Notes under the pieces: model-generated
Told to the model about the DNA's origin: nothing
Seen by the model: the letters and a program-made list of their open reading frames with translations, nothing else
Database searches by the model: none
Shown: piece by piece, positions 12,097 through 64,000 of the stretch
Position numbering within the stretch: the first letter of the stretch is position 1
Layout: each line of letters begins with the position of its first letter
Source: Styela clava
Taxonomy: Eukaryota
Assembly (NCBI RefSeq): GCF_964204865.1
Contig: NC_135259.1
Coordinates: 8,060,001 to 8,124,000, forward strand
Length of the DNA stretch: 64,000 bases
Direction of reading: 5' to 3'
Position numbers and translations under genes: made by a program

Positions 12097-20056
<7,960 letters not shown>

Positions 20057-38599: not shown

Positions 38600-41500
38600 T
38601 TATCTGGCATTTTCAAGCTGATTTATTGTCTTATGAAGCCCATTTGTATAGTTATTTACTTCATATAATTGGGAAGATCCGTATTTTAAAGGTTTGTACT
38701 TCTCGTTTTTAAAAACATCAGGATCGCTCTCCAAGCATTCAATATCTTCTCTTCCATAAATCACATTTTCCATATGTTCTGTAATTGTCCGTCTTGCCGT
38801 TCCATTTGTAAAAAGAGGTATCTTTGGGTTCATCGAATTGAAATCTGGCTTGAAACGCTCATCTATGTTGATTCCATTCACAATTCGACATATTTGACAG
38901 TATGCCGTTTGTCTTCCATAATTAGGCATATCTTCTCCTGGAAGAAGATACCAACTGTAACAAAATGAAATGAAATATAGAAGCATGTTGATTCAAAGGT
39001 ATTTTTAAAAATTTGCTTATGGTCTGACGTTCTCAAGTCCATCAGGCCAAGGCGATACACTGATATGAATTATGACAGTGTACAGAAGTTATACGTTGAT
39101 AAAAATCAAAATTCATTTTTTCTATTTTAAAAATTGAGTTATTTTAATTCTCTCCTTTAAAGAAAATATGTCTGAACTTCTCTGTAGATCTCATTTGATA
39201 ATGAGTTTCAGTTCAGTAAAAAGATATAATTCCAGAACAAAATTTATTTATTATAACTTGATGCATTTTACCATCAACTTTCAGTCGTTGAACAATGACT
39301 TGGGGTAAATAATATCAGAATATTGTGCGTGCTGAACGGGCTGTGAACTCAATTAACTACTTTTCGAACATCACATTAGATTTAAATATGAAGGATATGG
39401 AAGAAGTTAGAATATATTAATGAAACAGTTGTAACAAAAGATTACAATATTGTCAATTCCCATCACTGCATGTTTTATGGGAGAATTTCTTGTGTCATCG
39501 TCTGACTTTTTTTTAGGTAGAACTAGATTTAAATTACGGTAATTCGACATTTAATTTTTTTTAACAAGAGTCCAAATCTATCACTGTAATGTTTAACATC
39601 TATACAATTTTTAAATTATACGAATCTATCGAAGATTTATTAAATCAAGTATCCCGAAAATATTTTCACTTACATAATGGAATGAATTATCTATTTCGAA
39701 TATATCCCACGAAATTATTCCTGTGGTTGGACTTATTTTATATAAATATTTCTTTTGGAGAAAATTCACAATGTTGTGTTCAGAGCAATAAGCCACCGGG
39801 TGACAAAGGTGTGCAAAAACTTCAATATATATGTATATATAAAACAACGGCGCTCCCGAAGTATATGCACCAAGATGGCGCACACCCTGACCCCTAACCT
39901 GGTACACATACTATGTTAAGGTTGTGCGCCATCTTGGTGCATATACTTCTGGAGGTCCAAAACAACTTACCCAAAATACTTCAGATACTCTTCATCGTTA
40001 TTATCCAAGAAGTCAAGATATGAAACTAGTTCTTGTAGTGAAGAGAAATCGTCAACGTGAATGAAAGAATTCGGTGGTGCAACTCTGTTGTAGTCATCCC
40101 GTTTTGGACCCCACACAACTGGTACGACACCATTTTGCAAACCAATTTTAAAGAATTTTTCAGTGATATAGTCTTTACAGTGGTAAGAATTTTCAAAAGC
40201 GAGATAGAATTTATAGGTTTTTAATATTTCTAAGTGGGATGCTCTTTCTAAAGTGTTGTTGAAGCAAGATCCGAACTTATCTATTCTAAGTCCATATTCT
40301 GACATTTCTGTTATGATTTTTATTCGGATACGTGCAGCAGGCGAAAACATGCAGTTCGAAATAATAGCTATGGTATGATTTGTTTTTACTCTGAGCATAT
40401 TTTCAAATTTTCCATCGTATTCCTTTGCAAATAGTTTGTTTACTGCTTGATGCGAAAAAAAGGCGTTTCCGTAGGTATAAAAAATGTCGGAATCCCTTCT
40501 TAAAGTCATTGTGGCATTGAATTGTCGATCAGTTTCAAAAGTGAAGTTCATCGATCTTTGTTGTAGAGAAGATGGAGATTCACCACTTAGCCAAATGTAC
40601 AACTGGTCAGGACGTCTGAAGTCGAATATAAACAAATCAAACTTTAGTAAAAAAAAAACAATCGTTATTATTTCTATAGTATATGGTACTTGAATATAGC
40701 TACGCATATTCATGAGTATATATGTGCCATTCTTTCTATATATATACCTTTAGAATGATGCACATAGTTTTTGGATTACAGAAAATTCAATGCCAGAATA
40801 TGAAATATACATCTACCGAAATTTGACAGCAACATGCAAAATTCATGTTGGACCCACATTTAAGATTAATCCCTCAAAACCCCAGTACTGTATTGTACTT
40901 TTACGCTAGTTTGTTCAAAGCCAAGACGAAACGTCAGCAAAAAGTGAAAAGACTACAAAATACTTCAGCTGAAATAAACAACTTAACGTGAAGCGACGTA
41001 CATCAATAATATCTTTGTGGATATAAACGAGAAAGGGGGTGAAACGAGATTTTTCAAACTTTATTCTTATTTAATAGTACAAATTACCTTAATGATTTCG
41101 ATGGCATAGTCGCAAAGTTCACCTTTCTGTAGGTAAACACTACAGCTGCTGTATGACTGTCCACTATCTAGACATAAAAATATACCGCTTTTGGATGTCA
41201 CACTGTATAAATCACCAGTAAGTTACGTTTGAAACAATGTAATAGGCACAAAAGAGTAATACTTCTATTCAAATCCCCTACATTTTTTAATTCACATCAA
41301 CGTTATAACTATTCTCCACGAAAAATTTGACAAATAGCTGAAAGGAATACAAAGATTCAAGTTTTCGATGGAATTTCATTACAAATTTTACCTACTAGTA
41401 TTTTCCTGCCATAAATCTAAATTAAACACTTTGAAAGTAATCACACCCTTGTATTATTCTTTGCGACAAGGCTACAGTATCCACAATTTCTATTCATTTC

Positions 41501-42376
41501 ATTCCCAGTTCTTTCGGGTCTGTTGAATCCGCCCCAGATCACAATCACCTTCAAAATTGAATAAATAACTGTAGTGCAGAAAAATAATGTATGCTGATAA
41601 CTAGACATGAGCTGAACGTGATAGCTTATAAAAAATAATATATTCTTGATCAGATTTCTGCCAGTCCATAACCTCCGAAAATAGACAAAAGAAAAGAGAT
41701 ATAGATTTCATTGCCGTTATACCGTTTTCAAGTTCTTTTTCGGCGCTCTATAAGTATGTGTACCCATATGGAGTTAACTAATTTTGTTCGCCTACTTTAC
41801 ATCAAGTTGTGTAAAGGGACGGAAGCCTATGGGTAGGGGTATATTCACTTGGCTAACTCAAACAGTCCCCCGAACTCGTAATATAACTAAAATAAGAAAA
41901 ATCAGAATAAAATTATGTCCTAACCCTAACCTGGTACATTATACGGGAGTACCCATTTTTCTTCGGATCTTCAAAATATTTGCTTGGAAACACATTGCAC
42001 AATATCGTAAAACAAATGGGGAGAATTCTATTTAAGGGAATTTTATCTCTATTGATTATTTACGACTAAGTTATATTTAAACATACTTGCCTTTAATTAT
42101 CAATCAACATACCTTTCTATTTTTCGATGCTTGGTTTAATTTCTCAGTAAGCTGCTTTTCTTCTTCCTCCGTTAATTGATATATGGTAGGAGTGAATGAT
42201 GCTTGCTTACTGGAAAAATCTTCAAAGTTGTCTCTTCCCTCATATTCAGTTTTAGAAAACGACATTTGCTGGTAGGTTGTCGCCATATATCCGTTATATA
42301 TGTGAGTTGAGATATAAACACAGTACACAATTGTCAGTATACACGTCGTTATGAAGCACATGTTGCGTTTGAACAT
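38600..42376 (-). CDS. Alpha-1,3-fucosyltransferase (GT10 family), about 481 aa; exons 42376-42113, 41548-41447, 41167-41088, 40615-39971, 38954-38600
   Basis: N-terminal type II membrane anchor. Motifs RRPDQLYIWLSGESP, FNATMTLRRDSDIFYTYG, YKFYLAFENSYHCKDYITEK (alpha-1,3 FucT motif), VPVVWG, PPNSFIHVDDF and YFGW. Exon phases consistent. Confidence 0.93.
39849..39958. mobile_element. Short MITE of the GGCGCTCCCG family, about 12 nt from the fucosyltransferase exon 4 donor
   Basis: GGCGCTCCCGAAGTATATGCACCAAGATGGCGCAC ... GTGCGCCATCTTGGTGCATATACTTC; internal CCTAACC. Confidence 0.75.
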
Positions 42377-45145
42377 TGTTACCTTTCTATATTTTCATTG
42401 TATACACTTAACGAATATCATACATTATTATAGTATTTGTAGTAAGTTGAAAGTCACTTTAACAAGACTGATCTAGTCATTAGTCAGAAGAGTGATTTAG
42501 TCAGATAAGACCCCGAATCAACCTTCGCTACGCTGTAACATTAATTCTGTTTTACAATTCAGAAGCGCAGGTAACCTATAAACGTACTACTGACATAAAA
42601 TTTGCAAGAGCGCGCTACTTGTTTTTGTGCCAAAATATACAAATGTTTGAACAATGCCTGAGGCATTGTGATTTGGCCGTTAATGCTCTAATATCTATAC
42701 GCAATGTATTTTATTCCATTTTAAGATTAGTTAATAATTTCTTAGAAGCATTGCATTTTAATCAATACCGATTCTCGAAATCAAAATAATCCTATGTTAC
42801 GATTCGAAAATTTTTACTTTGCACAATAACTGATAAAATTTTGCACAAAATCACCATGTAGCTGAAAGTGTGATAGCATTTTCTGTGTGTTTTCTTTCCG
42901 CTTGTCTTGTTGCAATCTTGCTCTGGAGAGTCATATTATATCAATCGAAGTCTGACATTGCACAAGTCTGATTTTATGACAGCAGATTACATCAGAGAAA
43001 ATCAGCGACCGAAAAACAAATTGTTTCTGGCTCCCATAATTACATATTTTAATTTAAGTATGATTTATTTTTAATTAAATAATGTTAAAAATAAAGCACA
43101 CCGAAGAGTGAACGCGATTCAGAATCGGGCAATACTATTAACGCAAGTTAAAAGTTAAATTAAACGCAAGCAAAATTTAGGTGGATAATTGAATGTAATA
43201 AACTCTCAACATCTACTTTCGTCTTTGATTGATGAAAATTTATTCTCATGTTCGTATCCAATTATGGTTTATTGAGATGAGAAAATCAGAATTATCCCCC
43301 CAGCTCATATTTTGTACTTGGTAGACTCAGTTAGATTGTTTATAGCTTTTAAGATGAGATAGATATACGAACATACGTTAATTACATATATATATATATA
43401 TATATATTTATAAATTATGGTTCAGTTTTTTTTTTCAGGTATAACGCCAAAAGGAACTAAGAAATAAATTTTATAGCGAAAAGCACCTGATAATAATATT
43501 CCCCAGCTTATCAAGGCCCTTTGTGGTAGTGGCTGTTATAGCTTGATTTGCAAATGACGTATTTGTTTATTCAAATTATACTTATTGACAGAACAAACAG
43601 GAACAAGCCAGGACTTTGGTGGCCAAAAATAAATTCTCTTTATTAGTAGTGCTTTGTTCAGTTCTAGGTATAGTTTAAATAGAACTAGATTTGCGCAGAA
43701 CTTGGAAGATGTGTATACCAAGAGCATTCCTTGTACGCGGATTCTTAAATGGCGTTTATAAAGATACAGTCAACACGGAAGTCATACAAGATAAATCATA
43801 GTTTCACACAATAATGTTTTTTTTATGTAAAATTGAAATGATATTAAGTCGAATTGTATTTTCTAGAACAAAATTTGATGTATCTCACAACCGCATGCCT
43901 CGAGATTTATTATCTAAAATCGAATTCATAATCCAATGTTAACTGTTGAAGTGCTGGGGAAACCTTTTATTTTTATTCGTGTCGTCTGCGATCCCAGAGT
44001 ATACAAAATAGGACTGGATACGATATTATTGACGTTTTTAGTGGCTTCGAATTATTAATTATGAATAAATGACTACGCAAAACTTCAAATCCAATTTAAT
44101 ATCAGCGACAAAAGCTAATTTCATTGAATTAACTGAAGTGTAAGAGCTACAATTTGTAGAGTACGATTGGAAGAAAACTCGCGTAGGTGAAATGAATCCT
44201 GCAAGGACAAAGAAATGTCGATTTTTTTTAAATAAGGTTCATATGTAAAACGTCATGTGGTATAAAACAGTTTTTTTTGCTATGATATATAGATATCCCA
44301 TACTCTCAAATGCTTTTATTCCTATTACAAATAGGGAAGGCTTACGTCATGCTTTGTTGATCCGCAAGTAGTTCCCGATGTAATATTTGAACTATTCCAC
44401 TCCAGTCCGGTTCAAATTTGGTGGTATTTTAAACGTTTTAACTTTCACTTTCTTTCAACGATAGACACTACGATGACAATTGAAATGTGTGAAATCAACA
44501 ATACAACTCATATATAGTAATTCCTGATTACATTTTAAATACTACCATAATTCGACAATTATATTGTAACTCATGTTTTACCATTGCTTGTGAACAACAT
44601 GACATCAAATTTAGTTTCAAGATTCAAACAAGATCTCGAATTCTATCTACTCAACTTTGTCAAATAGGTAGCAAATTTTACATCAATTAATTTGAACATT
44701 TAGAAAGTTTGCAATAACAAAATGTGAATAATATTCAACATATTCATGCTGTTTACCCACCTGCTTCAATGAAGAATCATTTTTAATGACATGAAAATTG
44801 TAATATAATTGCATTCGTAGTATTTAGAAATTGCATGACATCAAAATCAACAACCACTGACATTGCTTAAGTAATTTATAATATGCTAATTATCAATTAG
44901 AGCATTGTATAAATACCATTACCTACAACCTATCCCACGCATCCACCCACGCGTGTATCAAATCCGACTTTTTACTATATCTGGTTAACAAAGAAAGCTT
45001 ATCCTAACAGAGAATTAACTCTTTTATTCTATATACCGAAAAAATTAATTTAAATTTTCAAATATCATCAATAAAACACTTTATTTATATTGCGCAAATA
45101 AATTCTGTATTGCCTGCCCCGTATAATTATTTTGAAAATGCTTCC

Positions 45146-45216
45146 GGTAATTCCCCTGGTGGTGTGAGAAGGATCGTCCACATATATATATAACCGTGAA
45201 CAGCGCTACGGTAAGC
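45146..45216 (+). promoter_or_regulatory. Putative IAP core promoter: kappaB-like site, TATA-like run and a donor for a short non-coding exon
   Basis: GGTAATTCCCC at 45146-45156 (reverse GGGAATTACC, one mismatch to GGGRNWYYCC), ATATATATATAA at about 45182, ACG/GTAAGC at 45211. Confidence 0.4.
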
Positions 45217-45390
45217 ACATACGAGAGACTTCATTTCAGCAAAATTTTACGGTTCAATAAAAAAATGCATTCCTGCATTTCAAGTATTCAATAGTCTAGT
45301 ATTTCTGCAACCTGGATTTTCTTCTACACCTAAAAATTCCAAAATTAACAACGTTTCTTGGCAAGAAGCAACATCTGAGCAAAAATCATC

Positions 45391-48300
45391 ATGGAAAAGC
45401 ACATATTGAATCATCGGAAGTTACGTAATTCCTTTGGACCAGATCTTCCAATATCCGATTGTTCTCAGTCATTGAGGGGGCATTTTGATATTGGAAATGA
45501 ACTTGAGTCCAATGAAGATGACGATGAAGGTAAATGCTTATTATAATCAAATGCATAAATGAATGAAATAGATGTAAATGCTGTACTGGAAATGAATCAA
45601 ATGCCAAATATGCGTGATTATAATACTGTTGTTATTCATCATTTTAGATATTTTGAAGCGTTATTTCAATAGATAATATAGTAAGTTGTATATATGGGTG
45701 TAACTACTTGATAACAATATTGTAATACAACTCAAAATACACCACAAAACAACTTAGTTAGAACTGGATTGGAAACAAAGTTGTTCACTACAAACTACGC
45801 GTTGGTATTTCATCGTTGTTTATTCTTCTTCTGAGTTTTCTTCCTTACTTTAAAATGCAGACGGTATAGCGGAAATCGGTGCTACCAAGGGGACAGAGGC
45901 CGATGGAATCCGACACGAAAATGCAGTAGATCCGCCTGGTTAGTAAATTTGATTACATTGTTGTAGAGTGCTGTGGCGCATAATTGATTTTATATGAATT
46001 TCCTTTTTAAGTAAAATTTAAGCATTAACAAGAGTTTTCTTTCATGTTATTGCGAAACGTTCTTGTCTTGAATACATATTGTTATTCATTTGTATCACGC
46101 ACCTCAAGCGTGCACTTGTAATCGTGGCGACAGTCCAAAGAATAAAAGATTGATCAAACAATGTGGTTGTTATGTGGCACACCCACGCTACGCCCCGGGC
46201 AATTTACATATCCTTGAACAAAAAGAATAAGGGTCGATTTTAAAGTATAAGTATAAAAAATTAGTAAAATTAACATTAGTAAACCAATTATATTTATTAA
46301 ACCTGAGTACAAGATAAACTGATCTTGTATGTAAAAGCTTGTTCTATGTAAAAGTTATATGAAAGCTTAGACTCTTTATTTCAAGTAAAAATCGAAATGA
46401 AACAATTCAATAATTAACTGCAGACTACCTGTATGTTCTCATATAATATAATTTGCACCATAATTCATTTAGCATTTAACATGTACGAGTATGATGAATG
46501 CACTTAAAAAATCGTTTTTTTCAAAAGCTTGTTGACTGCTTCATATATTCATTTGTTGAATAGTGTGGGCTTATTGAACACAAAATGTAAACTATATGCT
46601 CGAATTAGATGTCGGTTATATTCTCGCTAGATTCGCAATGAATGACACATTTGTTTCATTTTAAAATATTTACTCTTAATTAAAGACCAAAATCCGCAAC
46701 ATCTAGATCACTTCCGATGAGGAGGTAACTATAGTGACCAGGATATGAAAAATACTCATCGCAAGTGCAAATTGTATTTAGTATTAACGTTGCAATTTCT
46801 TTTCTTTTTTTCTGAAAGAAAATATATTAGTATTCAAGAATTTGGAAATAGTTAGAGCTAGAATCTTTATTTCACCAGGACAAGGATCTGTATATATACC
46901 ATCAGGAGACCACTGGAACGAAGATTATAGACTTGCTACATTTGCAAAATTTCCAATAGGTTCAGCTGTTTATCCAGCAGACTTAGCATCATCGGGATTC
47001 TATTATACAGGACATAGAGATAGAGTAAAATGCTTCAGGTGGGATATTTTTAAGAGCTACCGATTTGACTGAATGCTCACAAACAATTTGAAATTGATTA
47101 CAACTTTTTTTGTGTGTTTCTCATTAATAATGAAACGCAGAGTATGCGCATTGTAATATTCAAACTTATTTTAAAAGTAAAATTTGTTGCTGCCGTATAT
47201 TAAGTTTAAAGCAAATAATTAAGAATAAATATGTATTGGAGACATTTCTTGACAATGATCTGTTCTTGCTTAAAATCAATAATGTGTTCGAACTATGTAA
47301 GTGACTTTGCGGTGTTTTGTAGTCAGTTACTAGTATATATATATATTCCCAAGCAATGGCCACAAATATCAGCACTGTTTCTTTTGAATTTACAAATTCT
47401 ATAACAAAATTTATCCTCCGGCACCGCATTGACGATTTCAGCTGTGGAATCGCAGTAGAAAACTGGATCATTGGCGACGACGGACGAGATCCTGTGTGGC
47501 ACACAAGTGATTGTCTAATGGTTAACGGAAGAGCAGAATCCAACGTTCCTCGCGAATTTTTCAGATATCAAACATTTTTACCACAACGTCAAATGACAAA
47601 TAATACTGGAGGAACAGGGGTTTCCAATTCTGCGAGCGCGGTAAGAGTTAATATGGAAAGTTCAATCTATAGGGAATAGTAACACAAATGAATCAGAGAA
47701 ATTTAAATAGCAGTCTTCTGCTGTTATTTTGTGGAAGAAATTCAGCGCGAAAACATCACAATTTCAATAAATAAATGCAGATTTTGGGGTAATTTTTGTT
47801 TTTTATTCAGGCAAGGCACCATCAGTGGCATTCCGTCGCCCAGCAACCATTCCTTGCATGCTCGGGTAAGTTTTTATTTTATTTTGGCGGTATTCTATAA
47901 GGAAGTTGTAAATATTCAAATGAACATACAGGGTGAACTCCGAAAAACGGAACCTTTAAATTTTCCTAAGGACTTCCACGAAAATAGTGTAAAGTATTCA
48001 ATTTCATCTACACTTGAACAGTTCATATATGATTGCATGCAAAGTGTTTTTTAATCCTTTTCAAATGCCAACCTCGGCGTTGGACACAGACTTACATCCG
48101 TTAAGCAAAATAATCAATCACTCGCACACACTTTTCTATAGGAATTTCGCTGATTATTATTATAATTGCACCCTTGAGTTTACCAATTGTTTGAAAAGAT
48201 GACAATTTCGCGCGACGGATGCAAATCTGTCTCAATGCCGAGGAGGTAAAATTGGAACATAGTCTAGCAAGAACATAACTTTTGTTGACAGCGTCCTAGA

Positions 48301-51300
48301 TTTATGAAAATCTTGGTTATAATAGATACACAAACAGAAGTTCAAGTGCAAACAAAATTAAATATATTGTTTACATTTTCGTAGAAGAAATTTAAAAAAA
48401 TTATGAGTCCTGTTTAATTATGGATCACCATTGTATCAATAAAAATTATATTGTTTTCTATCTTTTATACTAAATACGCGTTAACATTTTTGTTCATAGC
48501 GAGTATCCAAGTGGCTGACGATTTATCAACTGATAGATATGCTCATCCTAGAAACATGCCAAACCAACAACAGGAGTTTGAGGTATGGAAACCGATGACT
48601 CTTTTTATTAACTTTGCTTGACTGAGTGTTTTTATCTTGCCTAATTTTTATTCTTAAAACACATGTAATAGCAAAACGAAATAATGTTTCTGTTTCAAAT
48701 CTAGGAATTACGCTTGGGAGAAATACATTCTGAAGAACATGAACGTTTGATATTTTCTCTTGATTTAAGAAATGAGGAACACAGAAGGTACAATGAATAT
48801 TTTGAAAAGTTTTGCTTCATTCTTGCACAAATTTACTCCTGTAAATTCGTTTCGTTTGACTATATAACACCTTTACAGAAAACCAGTGTCATTTTTTAAT
48901 TTCCGATTCTAAAATTCATTCTGATGTAATATATTTGCAGAAAAACTTTTGCCAAATGGCCTTCTCATCCAGCACCAGAACTTCCAGCTAAGTTAGCAGC
49001 AGAAGGTTTCTTCTATCTTGGCAATTTAGACCGGGCACAGTGTTTTTCTTGCTCTGGCATCCTCAGAAATTGGACCAGAAATGATGAACCACGAAGAGAA
49101 CACAGGAAACATTTCCCGAATTGCAAGTGAGTATTAAATGTGTTACCGTTGTAAAATAACATCATGAATAGAATTATAGCAATGGCAGTTTGTTGAAACT
49201 CCTGATGTCTTTCACTGATATTTACTTAATAGTGAGGAAAAGTTAGACTGTAATATGACATTGTTAAGTTCCGATGCAATCGTCTCCACTTGTACTTTCA
49301 CATACATTAACTTCCACAAAATTTGAATATCCAAGGCCTTGCGGTTGTTTTGATAATCACTTACATCTTCCATTTAAGCATTTATGATTGTGTTGAAGTA
49401 AAATGTACGGTTGTAGTAAATCACATCCACAATATCCCCGAATTTTTCAGACAATAGTAAACTTCTTCATTGTTCGATATGCAAATATTACAAACAAAAG
49501 ACGAATGTGGAATGTAACTATGGATTTTAATGTTATTTAACCCCTCTGTATTAATAGTATGTGAATTTAATGAATATGTCTGTGCCCTATTTTTCCCGAT
49601 TATGAATTATTGGGACAAGTGACAAGTACTAGCAATGCTTCTCTGTTTTCGACTGTTCTTTGTATCGACCAATTTGTGACGTGTTTCCGGCTTCCGTTTG
49701 AGAGTTGAGAATTTAGTGTTTTTCCTGTTTTGTGTTGCTTACTGATTTAAATTTCAACCATATAGTTGGTATTAAGATTTGGGTGTATATTTTAATATAT
49801 CTGTTTGGATTCAATTTCATCGTGCAAATTTACAATATAGGAACATTTGGCATTACAATACATTGTGTGCTTATTGAACTATGAGGAGTCAGTTGGGGTT
49901 TCACTCCGCTAACGTGGGTTTAACAATACGAGAGTAAGGACAAGCAGATTGGGACAACTATTCTACTATAAAACCTTTCGGATACACACTATAAAATCAT
50001 ATATATATAAGATTGTGCTTTTTACATTAGTTATCTTACGCGATATTATCGCCAATGTTGCCGTAGATACATACAGCTTTACTACAAAAATGGGTTATTC
50101 AACAAATACAACAACTTTCAAATATACAGAATAATAACTGGGATTGAAACGAGAAATATACCAATGACGGACATAGAAAGACAACGAATTGACTTTGAAG
50201 AAAAGCTTCGTTTAGATTCTCTCAGTTCTGAGCAAGAACCTGCAAATCCCACTTCAGACGAGCAGCTATATCTAGAAAATCATTTCAAGTGTCTTCATCC
50301 GTTGAATCCCCATATGCAAAACATTGAAGATCGAATCGCATCGTTTGGACCCGAATGGCCAGGTCATAGACTAAAGGCAACAGTTCGGAGCATTGCAAAC
50401 GCTGGCTTTTTCTACTTAGGTACGTTTACTAGTTTCATCTGGTTAGAACTAGAAACATTAGTTATATTGCAATTTGCAAAATGGCATCATCAATTACGGT
50501 CACCCTTAAATTGTTATTGTTAAATATCAATTACGGTCACCTTTAAATTGTTATTGTTAAATTAGTAAATCAGACAACTGCTGCTAATGTATTCTAAAAA
50601 TCTAATATTTACATCGCTTGCTATAGTAACTTTGTATTGTTATAAAATTGTGTTATCCACTTTAATACTTAGGCCAAGGGGACCGGACGAAATGTTTTTA
50701 CTGCAATGGGGGTTTGCAAAACTGGGATGAAGGGGATGAGCCGTGGACTGAGCATGCTAAATGGTTCCCGGGGTAAGTTCGGATATAGCTATACCTCCAA
50801 AACTGAAACCTTCAATAGATTCGTATTCTACTTATATTCACATACTTACTGAATATTGCTGTAAAATTGAGTTCTACTAATCTGAATTTTTTTATAATGC
50901 TTCGGATTTACCCCATAATATTCGCACTGCCTAGTATAATCGGATAAAAGCATGTTTTAAAAAAAATTTTGGTTGCTGTTATAGATGCGAGTATGTTCTG
51001 CGTCGCAAAGGAGTTAATTTGGTCAAAAGATTGCTAGAAGAGCATCCTAATATTCGAAGACCAATAATAAGAAATCATTGTTCCTACGACATACCGCCAC
51101 CACCTGTCGGCGAACATGTTGGAGTAGCTCAAGGCCCGCCTGTTCCGATCCCTGCATTTCAAAATCCCAAGAAAGGTAGCAAATTTTTTTTATTTTTTAT
51201 TTTTTAGAATATGATAATTGTTGTTGTTGGAATAAATAAACTAATTTTATAAACTTTGATTGTGATTTTATTTTCCTCGCAGATACTGCGCAAGTATTAC

Positions 51301-51470
51301 GTAATCTTCAATCGGAACGAATTTGCAAAGGATGTTCCTCACAAGAGTCAGATCATCTTTGCATGCCTTGTAGCCACCTGTCATTATGTTCCCGTTGTGC
51401 TGCAACTAATAAAAAATGTCCTACTTGCAATACAAAAATTGGAAGTACCATAAAAATATTTCGCACTTGA
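45391..51470 (+). CDS. Inhibitor of apoptosis protein (3 BIR domains plus C-terminal RING), about 583 aa; exons 45391-45529, 45861-45938, 46879-47038, 47442-47640, 47811-47865, 48500-48582, 48705-48787, 48941-49126, 50130-50419, 50673-50772, 50985-51175, 51283-51470
   Basis: All 12 exons join in phase. BIR1 [29 protein letters not shown]; BIR2 [38 protein letters not shown]; BIR3 [49 protein letters not shown]; [23 protein letters not shown]. Confidence 0.95.
47929..48433 (-). mobile_element. Internally deleted Tc1/mariner element in IAP intron 5
   Basis: Ends TA-CAGGGTGAACTCC and GGATCACCATTG-TA. The minus strand retains a decayed transposase C-terminus [12 protein letters not shown] (compare R...C....GGHFE). 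Confidence 0.65.
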
Positions 51471-52849
51471 AAAGTTGGGAAGGCAAAGTATGATGTTATT
51501 ATCATAGACTCGAAACTCAGCTAATTTCGCCAATCAAAGTAAAAGTATTCACGTATTTTGAAGCATAGAGAACTGCATACTGACAACGGAAACATGACAA
51601 GGATAATTTCGACTCAAATTTTCGTAATCGCGTAATCGAAAGAAACAGAAAACTATTTCTGATTTCTCGTGATTGCCCTGTTAAACGTCGCGGAAATGTT
51701 ACAAATATCGGCCATACAAAATAATAGACGTTTTAGTCTCTACTATTTCTAGTTCTGACTTAATAGAAGCAGTTACTAGCTATTCGTACTATTCATTTTA
51801 AGCCCAAATGTTAAAGTTAAAAGAAGAACTGATGGTTTCCAGATCTTTCCCATGATAGAAAACAGGAAACAGACATTTTGAATACAACTCGCTAGTGCTG
51901 GTATTTTTGCAGACGTGCTAACGTTTCTGCAAAGAGGGAACTTATATATAAATTGAATGCAGCAATGTATGAACTTTGACATATACATACAACGTAGGAG
52001 GTGAACATATTTGTTTGCAGAAGATAAAGTCACCAACGCAACCGCTTCATTAAACTGAACTTTGCACGTAACTATATTTACTCTCCAATAAAATGAGTTC
52101 AGCAAATAATTGTCTGCAGGTCCGGGTAATGTCCCAAGATATAAGTATCGGGGAAAGATTGTTGATTGAGTTACTGTAATTGTACATTTACGTCATGTGA
52201 CAACTTACATACAGTACACAATTTCAAATTCAACTACATTTGATTAATGTTAAACAGTTAATAATTCAACAAGAATGCTTATTATGCACGCTGTATCTGC
52301 ATTTTCTGTGAAGCACCGATTTGACGCATCATGTCATTTAGTGATTGAATTGCAAATGGCTCTGAGCAACTTAATCTGAACGAAATAGCGGATAACGTTC
52401 TGATAGTCAAAGTTTATTTTTTTAATTTGATACAAAACTGTTAATGCTATTACTTGCATTATCAAGTACCGTTTTTTCTGCTGCTCTGCGGTGTCATTTG
52501 TCATGCTGGAAACATATTTTTTAGGAATTTGACGAAAAAATTTAATACTTGTTCAGTACAATTGAGGCTTGTTTAAAATTTTCGTGCACAATTTTTCTAA
52601 CTTCAATATATTTGTTATAGAAGTTGAGTATAAATGCTAAAAAGCTTGCAAAAGTTGTTTCAGATTTATACTATTTGATGCGTATATTATTGATCTTTGT
52701 CTCAATAGTGCATATCTATGGCCAAATTCAGCAATACTAAAATGATAGTAAGTCATGTACTATTAAAATTAAAATTTTGTAATTGTTCTTCTTTCTATGC
52801 TTTGTAATTCTGTATTTCCCAACGGAATTCAGTTCACAACAGTTCACAG

Positions 52850-53065
52850 ACCTCATTGCGTAAATGTTCTCGAGTCAGCTGCCTCATAAAACCACTACCT
52901 GGACCTGGTGAATCCCCCGAAAATTGTCGAGGAAAACATTCGAGAACAAAGAACCCAGGTTCCACGAATTCAAGAAGTAATAAACAGCATCTATTTATCT
53001 TTGTATTCGCCAAACTGAAAAATTACATGGGGGTGCTTTACTAGGTTCATACTATATAAACTCCA
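52850..53065 (+). promoter_or_regulatory. Conserved upstream block of the duplicated orphan gene, with C/EBP-like, kappaB-like and TATA motifs; homolog at about 61218-61430
   Basis: GACCTCATTGCGTAAATG and CCTGGTGAATCCCCCGAAAATTGTC are identical in both copies while flanks diverge; TATATAA at about 53053 and about 61419. Confidence 0.5.
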
Positions 53066-53739
53066 GTAAGCTCAATTGTTATATAATATCAAAAAATTCT
53101 TTCAAGAATAATGATGTAATCAGTAAAAAATATTAAAATCACAACAATTCCCAAAACCACACATTCAAACTGCAAATCAAATTCTGCATCTGTCAGATTT
53201 TCATATTATACATCTTGTTTATCCTAAATACGTATATATACCACACTGCAACCATAATCATTGTTTTCAAAATTGTAACCGGTGGTCGAGTATGTGATTC
53301 TATTGCAGAGTTTCATTGTCACTCAGTTCTGTGATGTTTAGTAAAGACGTCACCTTTTTATTTTCATTATAAAACTTGATTTAAACTTATGTTGAGTATT
53401 ACAGTGTCGTTAAATCTATTCAGCGAATTTTCTAAACATCTAAATTCTAAACCAACAAAATGTATTTAGCGTCGTATGCTACTTTAAAAGGATTCTAATG
53501 AATTCTTTTTCATAGATACATTAGTTTTTATTATTGAATGGCTCGTTTTCAATCTATGTCTATATTGCTCTAGTTTCTATCATGAAAGAATAATCGATCT
53601 TGAGAACATTATACCTAATTTTATTTTTTCAATTTTCAGCATTAATGCTATTTAAAATGTAAAAGTAAATTGTGTTGGATTTGAACAAATTTATTCAAAC
53701 TGATTTTCTTAGTATATCGCCTTCGTAAAAATTACTGTC

Positions 53740-54809
53740 ATGGGAGATATACAACCAGAAGTAAATTCAACTACATCCGACCCATCATATCAGGAAGAAA
53801 TATCAAATCAATTACCAATCCAAGAATGTGCGGACCAGAGACAGAGTGAGTATCTTACAGCCATTTCCATATTTTAATAATTTTCATAAAATATTAAAAA
53901 ATTGCTTCGTTGTAATACACAGAAAAATGTTTCCGCTGAACTTTTTGCAGTGCTGGGGTTTTCAAAACAATACGTTCAACCGTTTAGCAGATATTGAATA
54001 GAAAAACATATTTAAAATTCAATATTTTGAAGTTTACTAATTACTGAGTCCCTAAAAAAAACTAAAGAGGTATGTTGATGATGAATATGTGGAGATCACT
54101 TAAGATCATGAAACGGTGCATATTCGTATATATTTCACCTTTTTACTATATTCGATCTAGGGTCCAATTTTAATTTTTACATATGCCTTACCGTTTAAAA
54201 GCAATAATTTTCTCTTTTACTGAATATTAGTTTACAACTAGGCTAAATACTGTTGATAAGGCCCAATCAACAAAATCACTTATATTTCATAGATGATAAA
54301 AATAGCCAAAAACCAACACCTGATGTCCCGAATTCTTTGATCAATGAACCGAATCAGAAAGGAAGTAATTCCTGCGTTCGCTGTGAAGGCAATTGCAAAA
54401 GAGCATGCATTGCTGCAGGCCGCCCAGAATCTGCTAGGTATATTTAATATTCGATATATTTAATAGCCGTGGATTTTGCTGACATATAACGGCACTTTAT
54501 TTTACCAAATTGAATATTTTATATAAGTTTATTTATGTATCGAACATTTTGTGGATCTATTTTAATATGGCTTATATGCTGGGTCAATCGAATAGAGCTT
54601 CATGGATTGACTGATAACATCTGTTGTAGCTAGAGACAAATTTAATATCCTCCGTGAAAAGATCGAACGAAAATATTCTATATTATGATATTTTGCAGTC
54701 GGAATAAAGTAGATTTCAATTACGGTAATTTTTGTTTTCTGATAAACAGAGCCGCTGAACAAGTCGTCAACGGAGATTCAGACTCGGATTCAACTAGAGA
54801 CTATGTACG
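53740..54809 (+). CDS. Small orphan protein, copy 1; exons 53740-53845, 54293-54437, 54750-54809; 3' end uncertain, possible last exon 60152-60233
   Basis: Phase-consistent exons conserved with copy 2: MGDIQPEVNSTTSDPSYQEEISNQLPIQECADQRQ/NDKNSQKPTPDV..CVRCEGNCKRACIAAGRPESA/RAAEQVVNGDSDSDSTRDYV. Indels between copies are multiples of 3. Confidence 0.75.
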
Positions 54810-54886
54810 GTATGTTTATAACTTTTGCGACAAAACCCCAAATCCGGAATGGTCAGTACGAATTGCAGTTATCTGAATAGAATAGT

Positions 54887-55575
54887 CAAGCTTGTCCATG
54901 GGAGACAATTTTCTGCCCCATCCCATCCCGTAGCAATTTATGCCTGTCACATCCTATGTACAAAGAGATATGCAATACGACAAATTATTTATTGACTTTG
55001 TCAAACTTCAGAAGTATCGTTTGACTATCGCAATTGAGTATCATCCTGCCACTCTTATTCTACTTCTGAGTTCAGCAGATTTCTTGCTCATCGACTGTTT
55101 TTAATGAATAAGATAATCCGGGTAATTTCTGAATCATTTTCTTAGTTTTCATGTTACATGCGAATCTGATGTATACGGCGTTTATAACAAGAGCAGGTAA
55201 AATTCCTTTTCTGTAAGTTACTCTCCAACAATCCGGCTGCACAAAATAAGCACCCCACTGCTGCCAATGGCACTGGTATGGCCAAAAACAATTTTCGCAC
55301 CAGGTTTTCGCAGTGGAGACGTGTGTTCATTTTTCGAATAATCTATTAGTTGTGAATTTGGTTGTCGTAATTTTTAAAACAAAATAAATAATAGACACAG
55401 TATATAGAGAAAAATGGAGAGTAAAAAACATTTGAAAAGTAAAAAGTATAAAGACTAAGTTTAGCTCTGACGTAATCAATTTGCTATGACATGGATACTG
55501 TCCCATGGGAAATACTAATGTGTACTGTCTCTACGCATGCGATGTTTCTCATGAGATTCCAACGGGACAAGTCTG
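54887..55575. mobile_element. hAT-type MITE with a perfect 8-bp TSD
   Basis: Ends CAAGCTTGTCC / GGACAAGTCTG; TSD AGAATAGT at 54879-54886 and 55576-55583; subterminal CCCATGGGA motifs. Confidence 0.8.
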
Positions 55576-55595
55576 AGAATAGTTGAAAAGTTAGT

Positions 55596-56201
55596 CAGGG
55601 TGGTCCAAACCCAGGCCCGCGGGCCACATGTGGCCCGCCGCTTCATTATCTGTGACCCGCGTCACATTCGGAGAGTAATCATTAAATCGCATTTCGTTAT
55701 GTTTCGTAATAAAATTGCCCAGAAAAATATTTTGACATATTGTTACATCACTAATGTCACTGAATTGACTAGTGTTATGGCTAGCCGAGGCAACTAGCGA
55801 AGTTGAATGATGTGCGTGGCAGTCTATTTTATTATCTGGCTTTCTATCTTTTTGGTCGGGAATATATGCTAACGATATAGGCATCATAGAAAACTAAAAA
55901 TCGAAGGCGGATTATATTAGCCTGGGATGGCTATGTCCAGTAGTGGGATTCAGCCGGTTGGCACCGGTTCTATAGAACCGTCTCACGGAATTTTATGAGA
56001 TCTGCGAACCGGTTAGCATTACATGACTTTTTGTAACAGAACCGCCTGGAAATTCGACATTTGTATGGTGGATCGACTGACAAAAAATTTGAATTCCACC
56101 ACTCGCTATGTCTGATAACCATGTGTTTGCTTTGTATTGTACTATTTATCTATTCTTGGCACTATTGTGGCCCGCGGAGCCGACAACCTTGGACCACCCT
56201 G
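55596..56201. mobile_element. hAT (Charlie-like) MITE, absent from duplicate copy 2
   Basis: TIR CAGGGTGGTCCAA / TTGGACCACCCTG; near-TSD AGTTAG(A)T; empty site near 63502. Confidence 0.85.
55938..56104. mobile_element. Small hAT-type MITE nested in the preceding MITE
   Basis: Ends CAGTAGTGGGATTCA / TGAATTCCACCACTC; perfect 8-bp TSD GCTATGTC. Confidence 0.8.
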
Positions 56202-57574
56202 AGTTAGATGATATGATAAATATAGTAAGTCAATGTGGTACATGTTTGTAACATGAAGCAACAACAACAGACAATACTGAAATGTATGAACACGAAAATC
56301 GAACGTCTCACCGCAGTATCGCAGCCTAGAACTTACACTAAAATTCGTTATCTGATCTATCAAAATCTCTAAAGATTGTGAATCAATTTCCACTTCGGTA
56401 GCTATTCACAGCTGGTAAGACCATGACTAAGTGGGGAGCATCGGCTTTGTGGGAAGATATCCGACTGGTTTGTCACATGATGTTATTTTAGAAAATATCG
56501 CACGTCATAAGAATCAGCGAGAATGGAATAATAATCATTTAGCAGCTTTTAACCATTTTTAAATACTGAAAATTTGAAAAGGATTAGTATATTAGTTTCT
56601 GAGAAAAGCGACTTTTTCCGACTACAAATGCCATTCCATCAGAAACAATTTAAGAAAGCCATCCATTCCGTGTCTAATAAGATAACCGTAGAATAAATTA
56701 GATCAAAATAAAAACATGTTTCATAACCCATAAACATAATGGTTTTTACACGACAAATGCGTTCAACAATTTTTGAAATAATGTTGGAATATTGAAATTT
56801 TCTAACATTCCGATTTTTTTTAAAATTTAAAACACTTCAATAACAAGAGAAACACAGAAATACTGAAAGGTATCCTAATGTATATATAAAAAGGTCCATT
56901 CATAGTAATATAGTAGGGTTACACGACAGATTCGAATTGGTAAATATTTGTTGACTATTTATCAAGTTCAGTCAGAGATAATTGTGAAACGGTTTCTTCT
57001 TTAGTAAAGATTAACTTCAGTCAGGTTTACGATACAGAACACAGTCGTTAAAAAAGAAATAGAGTAGGGACAAATGGAATATCATTGCAAGTGATTGGAA
57101 TGTTGAAGATGACATTTAGGATTCAAGTACAACGCTGTATTGTTGGAATGTTGTGGGATGTTACTCTCGCTAATTTATCCTACGACACTGTAACAATTGG
57201 AAGGTGGAACGATGGAATAACGGCAGTGTATCTAAATTCTTCATATATTTTTGTGGGATTTATTCGAGACATAATAAGTTCCTCCTCCTACTCTCATAAT
57301 AAGTTTGTCAATGTCGTCATACCAATGAAAGAAAGCAAACTATTAGTTTTTCGATGAATTCAAAATGCAATGCAAGAAGGAACGAAAAATCGACGAGGAT
57401 ATGTAAAACAAAACACGTTGTATGACGGCACAAATCAACCAGTACATTTACAGACTTTAAGGTGCCCAGTACGTTCGATATATAGCGAATGTGTATTATC
57501 TTTGTTATATATATACATATTATATGTATACTCAAATATACCAATTTCAACGATGAGGTAGAAAAATCTTCGAG

Positions 57575-57888
57575 CAGTGCTTCTCAAGCATTTTAGGCCG
57601 CGCCCCCTTTTTAGAATTAATCAAGTCTCGCGTCCCATCTCAAAAATAACTAGCTAACAATAAGCTTAAAACTACAGATAGTAAGGCGAAAGTATATATG
57701 TTTTATTCATAAAACACGTTGAAAGTAAATAGATGAAACGTAAATATTAAAATGAACAAAGCGTTTTGAAACGTCAAAAATAAGGTGGCCAAGTTCAAAT
57801 CTAACAAATATTTTTATTTTTAACTTCATGCCTCCTCAAAAATTGTCTAGCATCCTATGCGGCGCGCCCCGCCGTTTGAGAACCACTA
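57575..57888. mobile_element. hAT-type MITE
   Basis: Ends CAGTGCTTCTCAA / TTGAGAACCACT, with subterminal CGCGCCCC motifs. Confidence 0.6.
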
Positions 57889-60323
57889 AGAAAGTGAATT
57901 TGGATAAATCAAGATTTGTTAAGTTATTTTTTGTTTCATGAAGTCAATAATTTATGTTACAGAAACGTTTTTGAAATATAAATATATAAATTTCATTTCT
58001 AGGGCAAAATCTTTCTCTCTAATTCTATGATGTAGGCGTCTTTTCATATATATTTTCAATATGTTTCGAATTGTATTTTATTCTGAATCGTCCATGGAAT
58101 ATTGGTTTTTGAGTATAAACTGTGATACAAAACATATATTATGTATTCGATTATTTGGATCCAAATAAATTCTGGAGTCTCTTATCAATAAAAATTTAAA
58201 TATCCATGCACATCCTATACGGTAGTTTAGTTTTTAACATATTTATATGATGACTTATAACTGTGAATAGATTCGAATTCCTTCTTTCTAAACAATATTT
58301 GTGAATCCTATTTCTCGTGGACAAGTCTGCATGTAACAAACTTCCAATGGGATTTTTTTAGAAGAGTCACTGCAGATATAGGTCGTATTATCCCCTTATC
58401 TGTGAAATTATTTTCTCAATTTTCTATGGTGCTGGTTATCATTTGAACAAAAATCAGTAGGTCGTTAAAAACTAAACTAAAATGTAAACGGGACCAGTAT
58501 CTACGTTAAATTACTGCCATATTTTAATATAAAACGTATCATCGAAATCAGAAAAGAGTTCGACCCCGAATCAAAAATTTCATGAGAAAATTTATCATGA
58601 TCGTTTTGTCTTATCTCTGAAGTGACTCTCCAAATGTGTTTGAATTGATGACCATTCTACGATGTGGCAACAAGTCTTAAAGTTTGTACAGTCACATTGC
58701 TCTATATTTATGTGGCAATACTATACCTACGTCAAAAGTGTAAAAATAAAATTTGGAAGAAAAAAGCTTTGGGTTTTGGGTTTTAAAAAAAATTACCTAT
58801 AATAAGACCCTACGAACTGTTTTATAAATGCTTGGATTTATCTCGCGGATTAATTTTCTGTTTTGATACATCCCAAGTGAATTAAGACATCTCGGATATA
58901 ATACTGGTCAACTGCGATTTGAACTTGAAATCTCTAACATGCCATGCTAATATAGATATATGTGATGTAATTATTGCACCCCATTCCATTGAGATTTGTT
59001 TTGTGTCATACTGTTGCCCATTGCTGTTTGAAGTCGTTGGTTCGGATACCTTGGTTAGCTGTTCTAAACATGCTTTCCAAGAAGTAATGCTGTATATTTA
59101 TTGTCACCACGTTGCTATTGTTCATTTGCAATTTGATATTTTTATATGTGATATTTTGTTTGATTTTTTATTTTAATATGCAAAATAAATAAATGAAGGT
59201 TAGAAAGAGGTAAGATTGAAATACAAAAATAAGCAGTTTTTGGCAAATTGTAGTCTGTTTTCTGACTGCTGATTATTCTATATTTGCATTTCTTGTATTC
59301 CTATTTCCTATATCGAATGCTGAAAATTTTGAAAGTCATTGATTTAGCAGTTTCAGATGAATGCATACTATAACAGCAACATCAATTTGTCAAAGTTTTT
59401 CTCTGTGTCTACTAGCGAGAGAGAGAAAACTTCGGTACATTGCAACTTTACTAAAGTCCAAGAAGAAACCGAAATATTATCTTATTAACAAAGTGGTATC
59501 AATAATAAACCATATAAAATTTAAAGAAGTTCGTGGTGAAGTAATTCCAAAAATATCAATTTTTAAAAATTATTGTTAATCCTATAAATATCTGGGAAAT
59601 TGTTGTTGCTGGTTATGTATATGCTTCTGTTACGACATAAACTTCTTTTCACCCACTCAACCGTTTCCTAATATTCAAAAGCTTGAAATAGATCCTTTGA
59701 ATAGGGTAATAGTTTTCGAATTCATTTACTGTCTGCGGTTTTTCAACCATTTCTTTATTTTGGGGAAAATTAGGTCATCAGATGAATTCTTCAATCATGC
59801 ATTTCGGAGAACGATTGTTCAAGCGTCATATTGTTGTGATAAAATTTGTATATATATATATGTGCACCCTCACTTGATCTTTTCCACGTTTGAAATTTCA
59901 GACTCAACGCAAATTTATTTCAGATCAGCTGTGTTCTTTGCACAAGTTCCTGGAATGGGGAGTTGAAAATAATGATGTTATTAATTTGAAAGCATCTGTA
60001 AATTTCAGGTCGTTAGCGAAAAAAGGCAGAAAGAACGAAGGAACCTCAGCTAATCTTAGAAAGCAAAGTGTCCGTGCAAAATGTTTAATCGAGCAAGTTT
60101 TATTTATACAAATGACCCAAATTATATATGTATGTTTGTGTATTTTCACAGTAACAGGTCATCGCAACCACAAGATGATTCTCAAGGACGCCATTTAGCG
60201 GAAATTGAACAGGAAGAACAAAAAAATAAGTGAAAAATCAACGAAGGTTCGTGTGTGCAATAAAAATCTTATAACTAACCCATGAAAGCGTTCGGAGTAG
60301 CCAGTGATTATATAACTAACGCT

Positions 60324-60550
60324 GGCGCTCCCGCAGTATGTAAACAAAAAAAAGCGGACATCTGAACATAGTATGTGTACCAGGTCAGGATTATTTGATA
60401 ATTTGATTCTAATTTTCCTTATTTAAGTTCTATTACGAGTCCGGGGACTAGCCAAGTGACTCCCGTAGTATTTGTAAAATTATAGCCTAACCCTAAACAC
60501 ATACTATGTTCCGGTGTCCGCCATCTTGGTTCACATACTACGGGAGTACC
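60324..60550. mobile_element. MITE of the GGCGCTCCCG family (longer form)
   Basis: Ends GGCGCTCCCGCAGTATGT / ACATACTACGGGAGTACC; internal CCTAACCCTAA. Confidence 0.7.
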
Positions 60551-62080
60551 CTAGCGCTAATCTGGTTAGATATTGTCGTATTCATTTGGTATTGATGAAT
60601 CATTTTCTTTTTAGTTGCTGATCAATGCGAAGACGAATCGAGAAACGACACGGACAAACAACAATAAAAATAGTATATTTTGTAAAACAAAAGGAATATA
60701 TGTAGTAATAAAACAATAAAATGTTATTTATTGTAACTATGTAAGTGTAATATAACAAATTCTAACTACTTTCTACTACGTTCTGATAATTAAAATTATT
60801 TGGTATAATTTGATACAAAACTGTTTTCGCCATTCTTTGCATTATCAAGTACAGTTATTTCTGCTGCGTTGTGGTGTCATTTGTCATGGTGTTAACATAA
60901 GTTTTATGAATTTGACGAGGATATTCAATACTTGTTCATTACAATTAGAGGATGTGTCAAATTTTTGTGCGCAACGTTTTTAAATTTAATGTATTCTTTA
61001 TAGAACTTTGGGATACATACTAAAACATTTGCAAAGGTTGCTTCAGATTTAGACTATTTGATGCCCATACTGGTCTTGTTCTCAATAGTACATATTTATC
61101 ACGAATTTGAGCAGTACTTACAATGATGGCAAGTCATGTAGTAATAACATTTAAATTTTGTAATTGTTCTTCTGTGTCTGCTTTGTAATTTTATATTTAA
61201 GTTCACAACAGTTCCCTGACCTCATTGCGTAAATGTTCCCGAGTCAGCTTCCTCCTAAAACCACTATCTGGGCCTGGTGAATCCCCCGAAAATTGTCAGG
61301 GAAAACATTCGAGTACAAAGAGCTCAATGGATAATATGAAGGAATTAATAACCATCTGTTTGGATTCTTATTGGATAAACTGAAAAATTACATGAGGGGT
61401 GTTTTTCTTGGTTCATAATATATAACTCCATCAAGCTTAATTTCCGGAAAAGCTCAAAATTGCATTCCGTAACAGCGATGTAAGAATCTGTGAATAAAAA
61501 AACTCACAACAACTCCAAAAACCACACATTCAAAGTGCAACTCCAATTCTGCATCTGTCAGATTTTCATATTATATATATATCTTGTTTATCCTAAATAC
61601 GTGTACTACACTGCAACCATAACTATAAGTTTACAATTGTAACTTGTGGTCGAGTATGAGATTCTATTGAAGAGTTTCTTTGTCATTCAGTTCTGTGATG
61701 TTTTGTAACGACGTCATCTTTTCATTTTTATTATAAGACCCCATGTTGAATATTACAGTGTCTTTAAATCTATTCAGAGAATGTTCTCAACCAACAGAAG
61801 TTGTAGATAAATCTGTCTATGTAGCTTTGAAATGATTATAATGAATTTTTGTTTTGATACATTTAGTTTTCATTTTTGAAGTGCCTGTTTTCAATTTTGT
61901 TCATATTGTTCTGATTTCTATTATGAAAAGTATAATCGATCTTGAAAATATTATAATCGATTTTATTTTTGACTTTTTAGCATTAATGCTATTTTAAATG
62001 TAAAAGTCAGTTGTGGTGGATTTCAACAAATTTATTCAAACTGATTTTCTTTGTACACCGCGTTCATAAAAATTACGGTC

Positions 62081-63275
62081 ATGGGAGATATACAACCAGA
62101 AATAAATTCAACTATAACCGCCCCATCATCTGAGGAAGAAATATCAAATAAACTACTTATACAATGTGCGGACCAGGAACCGAGTGAGTATCATACACTT
62201 TTTCCATATTAATAAATTGTTTTCATAGAATTCAAAAAAATACTTCATCATAAATTCATAATGCACAGAGAAAATGTTCTGACTGAATCATCTACAATGT
62301 TTGATTTTCAGGAAAATAAGCTTGCCCGCTTACTATATATTTACTTCCAAACCAATAATTGAATAAGAAAATATATTTAAAAATTAAACATTTTGAAGTT
62401 TAATAATTACTGAGTCCCTAGAAATAGCAAAACAGGTTTGAGTACATATGTAGACGAATATGTGGAGATCGCTTTAATTCAAAAAGCGGTGCATATTCGT
62501 ATACAGATAAACATTTTTACTCCATTCGATCCTGTGTCTAAGTTTTCTCAATTTTTCAAGGATGTCTATCTTTTGAAAGCAATGATTTCCTAATTTACTC
62601 AATAATACTTGACAAGTAGACTAAATTCTGTTGATAATGTCCAATCATCAAAATCACTTATATTTACCAGCTGAAAATAATAGCCGAAAACCGACTCCTG
62701 ATGTCGTTCCTGGTTCTTTGATTAGTGAACAAAATCAAATAGCAAGTAATTTATGCGTTCACTGTAAAAGCCCTTGCCAAAAAATATGCACTGCAGCCGG
62801 CCGCCCAGAATGTGCCAGGTATTTTCAAAATTTTTTATATTTGATTAGATTTAAAAAAAGTGTTGCGCTGTATAGTAGCTTTCGTAGATTTTGCTGAAAT
62901 ATACCGGCACTTGTTTCGACCAACTTGAATATTTTACATAAGTTTATGTAATGGCTATCAAACATTGCGTAAATCGTTTTTTAAATCTTATGGGCCATTT
63001 GGACTAAGCCCTATTCTTCAATTGTTAACACTATCTAGGAGTACTATGTAGTTGAATCTAGACAAATTTGATGTCCTCTGTGAATATATCAAATGAAAAT
63101 ATTATATACCTATAGGATATTTTGCAGTTGGAATAAAGTAGATTTCGATAAAACCTAATTTTATTTTTTCCAACATTTTAATATTATGCTACTATACATT
63201 TCAACTGAAAAACAGAGCCGCTGAACAAGTCGCCAATAAAGATTCAGACTCCGATCTGACTGAAGAATATGTAAC
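62081..63275 (+). CDS. Small orphan protein, copy 2; exons 62081-62183, 62671-62818, 63216-63275; probably continues beyond the window
   Basis: MGDIQPEINSTITAPSSEEEISNKLLIQCADQEP/TENNSRKPTPDVV..CVHCKSPCQKICTAAGRPECA/RAAEQVANKDSDSDLTEEYV; same splice positions and phases as copy 1. Confidence 0.75.
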
Positions 63276-64000
63276 GTATGTTTATAATTTTTGTAAAACA
63301 CCAAAACAAAATGATCAGTATACGTACTGCTGTTATATATGGATATTCCACTTCTAAGTCACTCTGCTTATTCAGTATATTCTTTAGTTTTCTTGTTAGG
63401 CTACATGCGAATCTGATGTCTACAGAGTTTATGACATGGGATGTTTTCCAGTAAATCCCCACGAATATCTATTTCCATAGACGAGCCCGAGATTAGTTGA
63501 AAAGTTAAACAGTATGATAACTATATTATAGTTGTGTGGTACATGCTTGTAACATGAAACAACAACATACAATACTAAAATGTACAGACACAAAGATCCC
63601 ATGTCTCACCGCAGTATCATAGCCTAAGCGACACTGGAATGCGCTATCTTATCCTTCAAAATGATCAGATAAAAATTGCAAATCAAGTTCCACCTCGGTA
63701 GCTATTCACGGGTAAGCCTGTAATACACCACCTAAGAATTGAGCCTCGACTTCGTCAGAAAGAGGACCGAATGGCATGGCCACGTGGTGTCGCAATATCT
63801 CACAAAACATCGCCTGCCATAACAATCAACGAAAATTTGACGAAATTAAAATAACAGTAATTTAGCAGCTTTGAACCATTTTAGGCACCAAAAATTCAAA
63901 ACCGATTAGTATATTAGTTTCCGAAAAAGAAGATTTTTCCCGTCGACGAATGCCACCCCAACAAAAATAATTTCAGTTAACCATCCATTTCGTGTCCAAT

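Follow-up and report, generated by a model that had tools for sequence, protein, structure and literature searches.

A possibly inducible orphan gene pair beside an inhibitor-of-apoptosis gene in the ascidian Styela clava

The window analysed here, a stretch of 64,000 nucleotides from Styela clava that is AT-rich eukaryotic DNA, contains a gene for an inhibitor of apoptosis (IAP) and, downstream of it, a small orphan gene present in two tandem copies; upstream of each of the three genes lies a C/EBP-type word paired with an NF-κB-type (κB-like) site. As all three promoters thus share one pair of inflammation-type switches, joint switching-on of the three genes is possible, and we regard their co-induction as plausible. 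The best explanation, to which we would give an even chance, is a small immune- or stress-inducible cluster in which a Rel/NF-κB factor and a C/EBP factor would bind the paired promoter words of all three genes, so that these would be induced jointly in immune cells or in cells under stress. The IAP would then promote cell survival upon induction and act as a ubiquitin ligase, by way of its second and third BIR domains (BIR2 and BIR3) and its RING domain and not by way of TRAF2. As to the small proteins, our guess is that they are young, fast-evolving accessory response proteins, which might act via a Cys-bearing helical core (by lipidation or metal binding) and an acidic C-terminal helix, and not via the IQxAD motif discussed below.

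Paired promoter words upstream of the three genes

The IAP gene and both copies of the small gene are located on the + strand, confirming the co-orientation described in an initial annotation of this stretch. That annotation had assigned to each gene a κB-like site upstream of a TATA-like motif and had proposed that the genes are co-regulated, while overlooking the C/EBP-type word 5' of each site. The κB-like sites at 45146, 52907 and 61276 are indeed present and upstream, each as an 11-mer on the − strand (45146-45156 for the IAP gene, 52907-52917 for copy 1 and 61276-61286 for copy 2), but none is exact: each carries one mismatch to GGGRNWYYCC, and all three deviate from this consensus at one common position. 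Moreover, the sites of the two orphan copies amount to a single observation, as promoter and peptide motifs of a tandem duplicate count once. The 11-mer pattern GGGGAWTYACC, defined afterwards, occurs three times in the window, only at these sites, and in none of 12 shuffles. The upstream words, of C/EBP type by consensus, are found at 45089-45098 (+, putative) in the IAP promoter, at 52855-52864 in that of copy 1 and at 61224-61233 in that of copy 2, corresponding to 56, 51 and 51 nt upstream of the respective κB-like sites. Their 8-nt core occurs at four places in the 64 kb, three of which are these promoters, and the combination of both words is restricted to the three promoters. In simulations the pair arose 15 times in 3 Mb, a rate of 0.003 per 600 nt that was obtained post hoc.

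TATA-like words could also be located, namely a (TA)n word of weak evidence at 45183-45194 (+) for the IAP gene, a word at 53053-53060 (+) for copy 1 and TATATAAC at 61419 for copy 2, but they are uninformative, with 99 overlapping matches to TATAWAWR on the + strand of the window and the word of copy 2 outside this pattern.

In the small gene the pair lies within a promoter module (52849-52944 in copy 1, 61224-61286 in copy 2) that is identical between the copies at 89 of 96 positions, compared with 1309 of 1698 elsewhere in the non-coding DNA (93% vs 77%; Fisher P 7e-5, with module boundaries picked afterwards). A second conserved non-coding block at 53135-53232 (~94% between copies) may represent an additional enhancer or an untranslated first exon. 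We also asked if the promoter of the small gene was derived from that of the IAP gene by copying and rejected this, the local alignment scores being 24 and 18 with a null of 18.7 ± 3.1 (maximum 31). Outside the two words the comparison of IAP and orphan promoters yielded P values of 0.06-0.41 for the spacer and 0.5 for the flanks. As these promoters are unalignable beyond the two words, the pair counts as having arisen twice independently; three origins are not counted, and a single one is improbable. The proposed co-regulation, though drawn from sequence, is strengthened by this pair of words, which is present at three promoters only and conserved above background in the duplicates.

In a study on Ciona, haemocytes are reported to express Rel/NF-κB and Cebpa (PMC12816324). 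A literature search, which left out most subscription papers, returned no precedent for the non-canonical κB word and no κB + C/EBP composites in ascidians.

The IAP gene and the tandem small gene

The IAP gene (45391-51470, +) comprises 12 coding exons (45391-45529, 45861-45938, 46879-47038, 47442-47640, 47811-47865, 48500-48582, 48705-48787, 48941-49126, 50130-50419, 50673-50772, 50985-51175 and 51283-51470) and encodes a protein of 583 amino acids with a BIR-BIR-BIR-RING architecture. Starting from one IAP exon frame we identified it as the Styela clava 'baculoviral IAP repeat-containing protein 7-B-like' (P0001, 583 amino acids), which is 100% identical to the window exon by exon and agrees with the 12-exon model; the gene is annotated by NCBI and ordinary for ascidians. 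Pfam assigns three stretches to the BIR family (PF00653, E 1e-58) and residues 533-575 to a C-terminal RING (PF13920), and detects neither a CARD nor a UBA domain between BIR3 and RING at E up to 10. Two papers retrieved on Styela clava and inhibitors of apoptosis do not, by title and beginning of abstract, concern this locus.

For comparison we used the 72 organism-named proteins among the matches listed (120 of 203), leaving out the other 48 rows, and calculated a quick tree from 33 named proteins. In this tree the IAP is placed in an ascidian-only clade apart from the vertebrate proteins (SH-aLRT 100), grouped with three Styela paralogues (SH-aLRT 99), and does not group with vertebrate BIRC2/3. 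The TRAF2 contact residues of cIAP2 are L30, M33, E47 and R48, as given in PMC6360406. Alignment of the IAP to the BIR1 domain of cIAP2 (7nk0) places D88, L91, P105 and A106 at these positions, and the E47/R48 pair occurs in three of four vertebrate rows vs none of 19 ascidian rows of the 33-row set. The IAP thus falls outside the cIAPs, and the TRAF2-binding residues of cIAP2 are absent. The initial annotation had argued from the premise that cIAPs act with TRAFs; as the IAP is devoid of the cIAP residues for TRAF2 binding and belongs to a separate clade, this premise is not transferable to it. The lack of the pair in all 19 ascidian three-BIR IAPs examined fits the rewiring of tunicate apoptosis reported in PMC13159474, which also counts 18 genes in the IAP expansion of Ciona.

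Two further observations concern the relatives of the IAP. In ascidian BIR1 domains (46879-47640 in the window) the last two zinc ligands are spaced as H-x3-C, vs H-x6-C in the rows of other animals. IAPs are also encoded in Endozoicomonas genomes (P0030 / L001:402-2333, L002:6001-8025 and L003:6001-7566), and P0030 falls within the ascidian IAP clade of the quick tree; PMC11521996 describes the IAPs of Endozoicomonas as host-to-bacterium transfer.

Copy 1 of the small gene (53740-60233, +; coding exons 53740-53845, 54293-54437, 54750-54809 and 60152-60233) encodes 130 amino acids, has a third intron of 5.3 kb and is followed by poly(A) signals from 60259. Copy 2 (62081-63275, +; coding exons 62081-62183, 62671-62818 and 63216-63275) is annotated by NCBI as LOC120338474, uncharacterized, with a protein product of 131 amino acids (P0002), and its fourth exon falls outside the window. 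The literature search found no paper naming this locus, again with most subscription papers left out. The four-exon structure was revealed by P0002, which placed the fourth exon of copy 1 at 60152-60233, so that an apparent exon at 55146 was discarded; the initial annotation had recognized the three genes, but had overlooked this exon. The copies derive from a tandem duplication (52395-54872 vs 60778-63336, 74% identical with non-coding DNA included), and the copy 1 protein is identical to P0002 in 84 of 132 alignment columns. Between the copies exons 1-3 contain two indels, both of 3 nt, compared with 5 of 34 in the non-coding DNA, and in simulations at non-coding rates the frame stayed open in only 0.045% of 20,000 runs (P 0.00045). 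Frames, splice sites and start context are intact in both copies. The frame-keeping indels, the open-frame probability and the NCBI model P0002 together indicate that the small gene is really coding.

Searches with P0002 yielded no Pfam family and no PDB sequence at E up to 10. Among 1.84 billion representatives, with no length limit, there were two matches at E up to 0.001, one being P0002 itself and the other a 1035-residue protein matched by residues 54-79 only, in 9 stretches, which we read as a Cys-repeat artefact. At the sensitivity of these searches P0002 is therefore not an N-terminal part of any known protein; had it been one, the proposal of the initial annotation would have fallen by its own standard. 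P0002 has no detectable relatives, and the orphan status of copy 1 would follow from that of its paralogue P0002. The small protein is acidic and mostly low-order, and with a maximum 19-residue hydropathy of 0.6 and no hydrophobic segment it is intracellular. A C-x2-C-x3-C-x3-C cluster (Cys 63/66/70/74) is conserved in both copies. Neither myristoylation nor transmembrane patterns were matched in the small proteins, nor was the IAP-binding motif of Smac/Reaper type, which starts with Ala, in N-terminal or post-Asp position. The BH3 pattern, L-x-x-hydrophobic-[GAS]-D-x-hydrophobic, has a strict match in neither protein and a loose match in copy 2 only.

Intron 3 sequence is duplicated as well (56212-56678 vs 63513-64000, 72%) and contains no conserved reading frame. 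In copy 1 this intron holds short terminal-inverted-repeat elements, hAT/MITE-like by eye, at 55596-56201 and ~57575-57890, the former being absent from copy 2. Five intronic or intergenic frames within 51779-59963 gave no Pfam match.

TRAF-type motifs and rival explanations

The initial annotation had further proposed that all three proteins share an IQxAD motif resembling TRAF-binding peptides. The peptide words it named could all be located on the + strand: SIQVADD (48502-48522) in the hypervariable BIR1-BIR2 linker of the IAP, where it is not conserved, PIQECAD (53815-53835) and SYQEE (53785-53799) in copy 1, and LIQCAD (62156-62173) and SSEEE (62126-62140) in copy 2. IQxAD is, however, not literally common to the three, copy 1 having one extra residue, and no match to PxQxT or PxQxxD is found among the three words. 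Among the matches listed only one of the 72 named IAPs, the query itself, contains IQxAD, and the linker stretch barely aligns. P0002 and the IAP have six words in common at four of five positions vs a shuffle mean of 2.7 (P 0.06), and at least one such word occurs in 92% of the shuffles. The rarity of IQxAD would hold only with the motif chosen beforehand, and the shared motif looks like chance. IQVADD (residues 213-218) was also considered as an XIAP-type caspase-binding linker and rejected, as the pre-BIR2 segment of Spea XIAP aligns with residues ~240-250; in ascidian IAPs, linker conservation begins only here, ~30 residues downstream of IQVADD. A conserved ascidian pre-BIR2 segment of the type hydrophobic-A-T-I...H-E, encoded at 48705-48787, aligns with the pre-BIR2 linker of XIAP and is a better candidate than IQVADD for a functional linker.

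According to PMC6125299, TRAF1/2/3/5 recognize Px(Q/E)E, the major motif, as well as the minor motifs Px(Q/E)xxD and PxQxT, and TANK binds via PxQxT. We consider it improbable that the small proteins are NF-κB-induced, TANK-like adaptors or decoys that bind TRAFs and work with the IAP via IQxAD or acidic motifs, as the initial annotation suggested. An exact Px(Q/E)E is present in copy 1 (residues 26-29), S-x-[QE]-E (residues 16-19) and a CADQ word are kept in both copies, acidic, low-order proteins of this kind resemble carriers of linear motifs, and the promoter pair would suit feedback genes. However, the PxQE of copy 1 has a shuffle P of 0.15 and is missing in copy 2, and the looser [PSAT]x[QE]E is no more frequent than expected by chance in either copy (P 0.13 and 0.09) and occurs in 65 of the 72 named IAPs among the matches listed. 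Neither small protein contains PxQxT or Px(Q/E)xxD, the IAP has no PxQxxD and a single PxQxS at residue 72, outside the linker, and the TRAF6 motif PxExx(acidic/aromatic) is found in none of the three proteins. With motifs at chance rates or not conserved, and with D88, L91, P105 and A106 in the BIR1 domain of the IAP, the adaptor or decoy role is unsupported; the initial annotation had itself listed non-conserved motifs among the findings that would speak against it. A related and similarly improbable reading is that the Styela-restricted orphan pair and the IAP share an apparently independently acquired module and that the small proteins are inducible TNF/TRAF/IAP feedback regulators of a new class, which would be membrane-tethered or metal-binding by their Cys helix and would present an N-terminal acidic TRAF-type site. 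If true, they would fill the place of TANK-like brakes in a group of invertebrate chordates whose IAPs are devoid of the TRAF2-binding residues of cIAPs.

It is doubtful, though by no means negligible, that IAP and orphan pair are chance neighbours, unrelated in regulation and function, with promoter words that are coincidental or serve other bZIP or non-Rel factors. The sites are non-canonical and the motifs were picked post hoc, the distance from κB-like site to TATA-like word is unequal (37 vs 146 nt), P0002 shows no protein similarity to the 72 named IAPs (best E 0.16), and at least one C/EBP + κB pair appeared somewhere in 6 of 40 whole-window shuffles. On the other hand, all three pairs of the window are located upstream of just these genes, alike in order and orientation and similar in spacing, and they have in common both the deviation from the consensus and the 11-mer. 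Little speaks for the small genes being decaying remnants of the IAP or another known gene, or having been born from a duplicated IAP promoter, with little function. They adjoin an IAP of an expanded family and are under weak constraint, and the inter-word spacer of copy 1 is slightly similar to that of the IAP (shuffle P 0.06), but they resemble the IAP gene neither in protein nor in DNA sequence, both copies are intact in frames, splice sites and start context, and the gene model is complete with stop and poly(A) signals.

Several points weigh against the inducible cluster. Non-canonical sites like the three κB-like ones are common, with 78 strand-hits at one mismatch or less in the window vs a mean of 46 in 12 shuffles and 30% of 600-nt tiles holding one; the motif pair was selected after inspection; and the promoter module is not unique, as block 53135-53232 is equally conserved. 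The dN/dS ratio of the copies is 0.61 over 102 codons, not significantly below 1 (Fisher P 0.08), and their coding identity of 81% compares with 77% for non-coding DNA (P 0.08), suggesting that the small protein is only weakly constrained. Its single-sequence fold model has low confidence (pLDDT 51), being best over residues 61-90, where predicted helices bear Cys 63, 66, 70 and 74. Furthermore, the haemocyte clusters of Ciona differ, with Cebpa marking clusters 8 and 16 and Rel mainly cluster 21 in PMC12816324.

The locus is an orphan gene pair, possibly inducible, beside an immune gene, and is no evidence for a new signalling system. In the inducible-cluster reading, a C/EBP-type word ~55 nt 5' of a non-canonical κB word could define an ascidian Rel regulon to which two uncharacterized orphan proteins may belong, and co-induction, if true, would make the locus a clear example of how a young gene joins an old immune regulon.

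Neighbouring features and comparison with known systems

An alpha-1,3-fucosyltransferase (GT10) gene at 39970-42394 (−) is transcribed away from the IAP gene and has no C/EBP + κB pair upstream. An exon of an AlkB-type 2OG-Fe(II) oxygenase (19649-20053, +) is found near a perfect κB consensus site at 20266, and a DUF4371/hAT-type transposase-like open reading frame (22897-24574, +) continues in a shifted frame. The window also contains an inverted repeat of 1.7 kb (12124-13909 and 15909-17651, 94%), whose arms consist of ~424-nt tandem units, and a family of short palindromic repeats with several copies (14339-14458, 39849-39954 and 60354-60550). Rfam gave no matches.

cIAPs are NF-κB target genes. 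With vertebrate cIAP1/cIAP2 (BIRC2/3) the IAP has in common three BIR domains, a RING and a possible κB-driven promoter; it differs in having no CARD, no UBA and no E47/R48 pair in BIR1, and in its separate clade. The closer likeness is to the expanded ascidian IAPs of Styela, Ciona, Phallusia and Clavelina ('XIAP-like / BIRC7-like'), which likewise have three BIR domains and a RING and of which the best matches show 40-47% local identity. Some of these carry a UBA domain (PF21290), whereas the IAP described here has a short BIR3-RING spacer without a UBA match. TRAF-binding peptides of the TANK/I-TRAF and LMP1 type resemble copy 1 in the letters PIQ and the nearby C and D. TANK itself binds via PxQxT; PxQxT and Px(Q/E)xxD are absent from both copies, and there is no similarity to any family.

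The inflammatory genes IL-6 and IL-8 have NF-κB + C/EBP composite promoters, and the promoters described here resemble such composites in that C/EBP-type and κB-type words lie within ~60 nt of each other, 5' of a TATA-like word; they differ in having a non-canonical κB word, of putative function in this species. Secreted-peptide orphans differ from the small proteins, which are intracellular by hydropathy. Taxonomically restricted immune or stress orphans in tandem duplicates are, like the small proteins, short, low-order and fast-evolving, with no relatives outside their own cluster.

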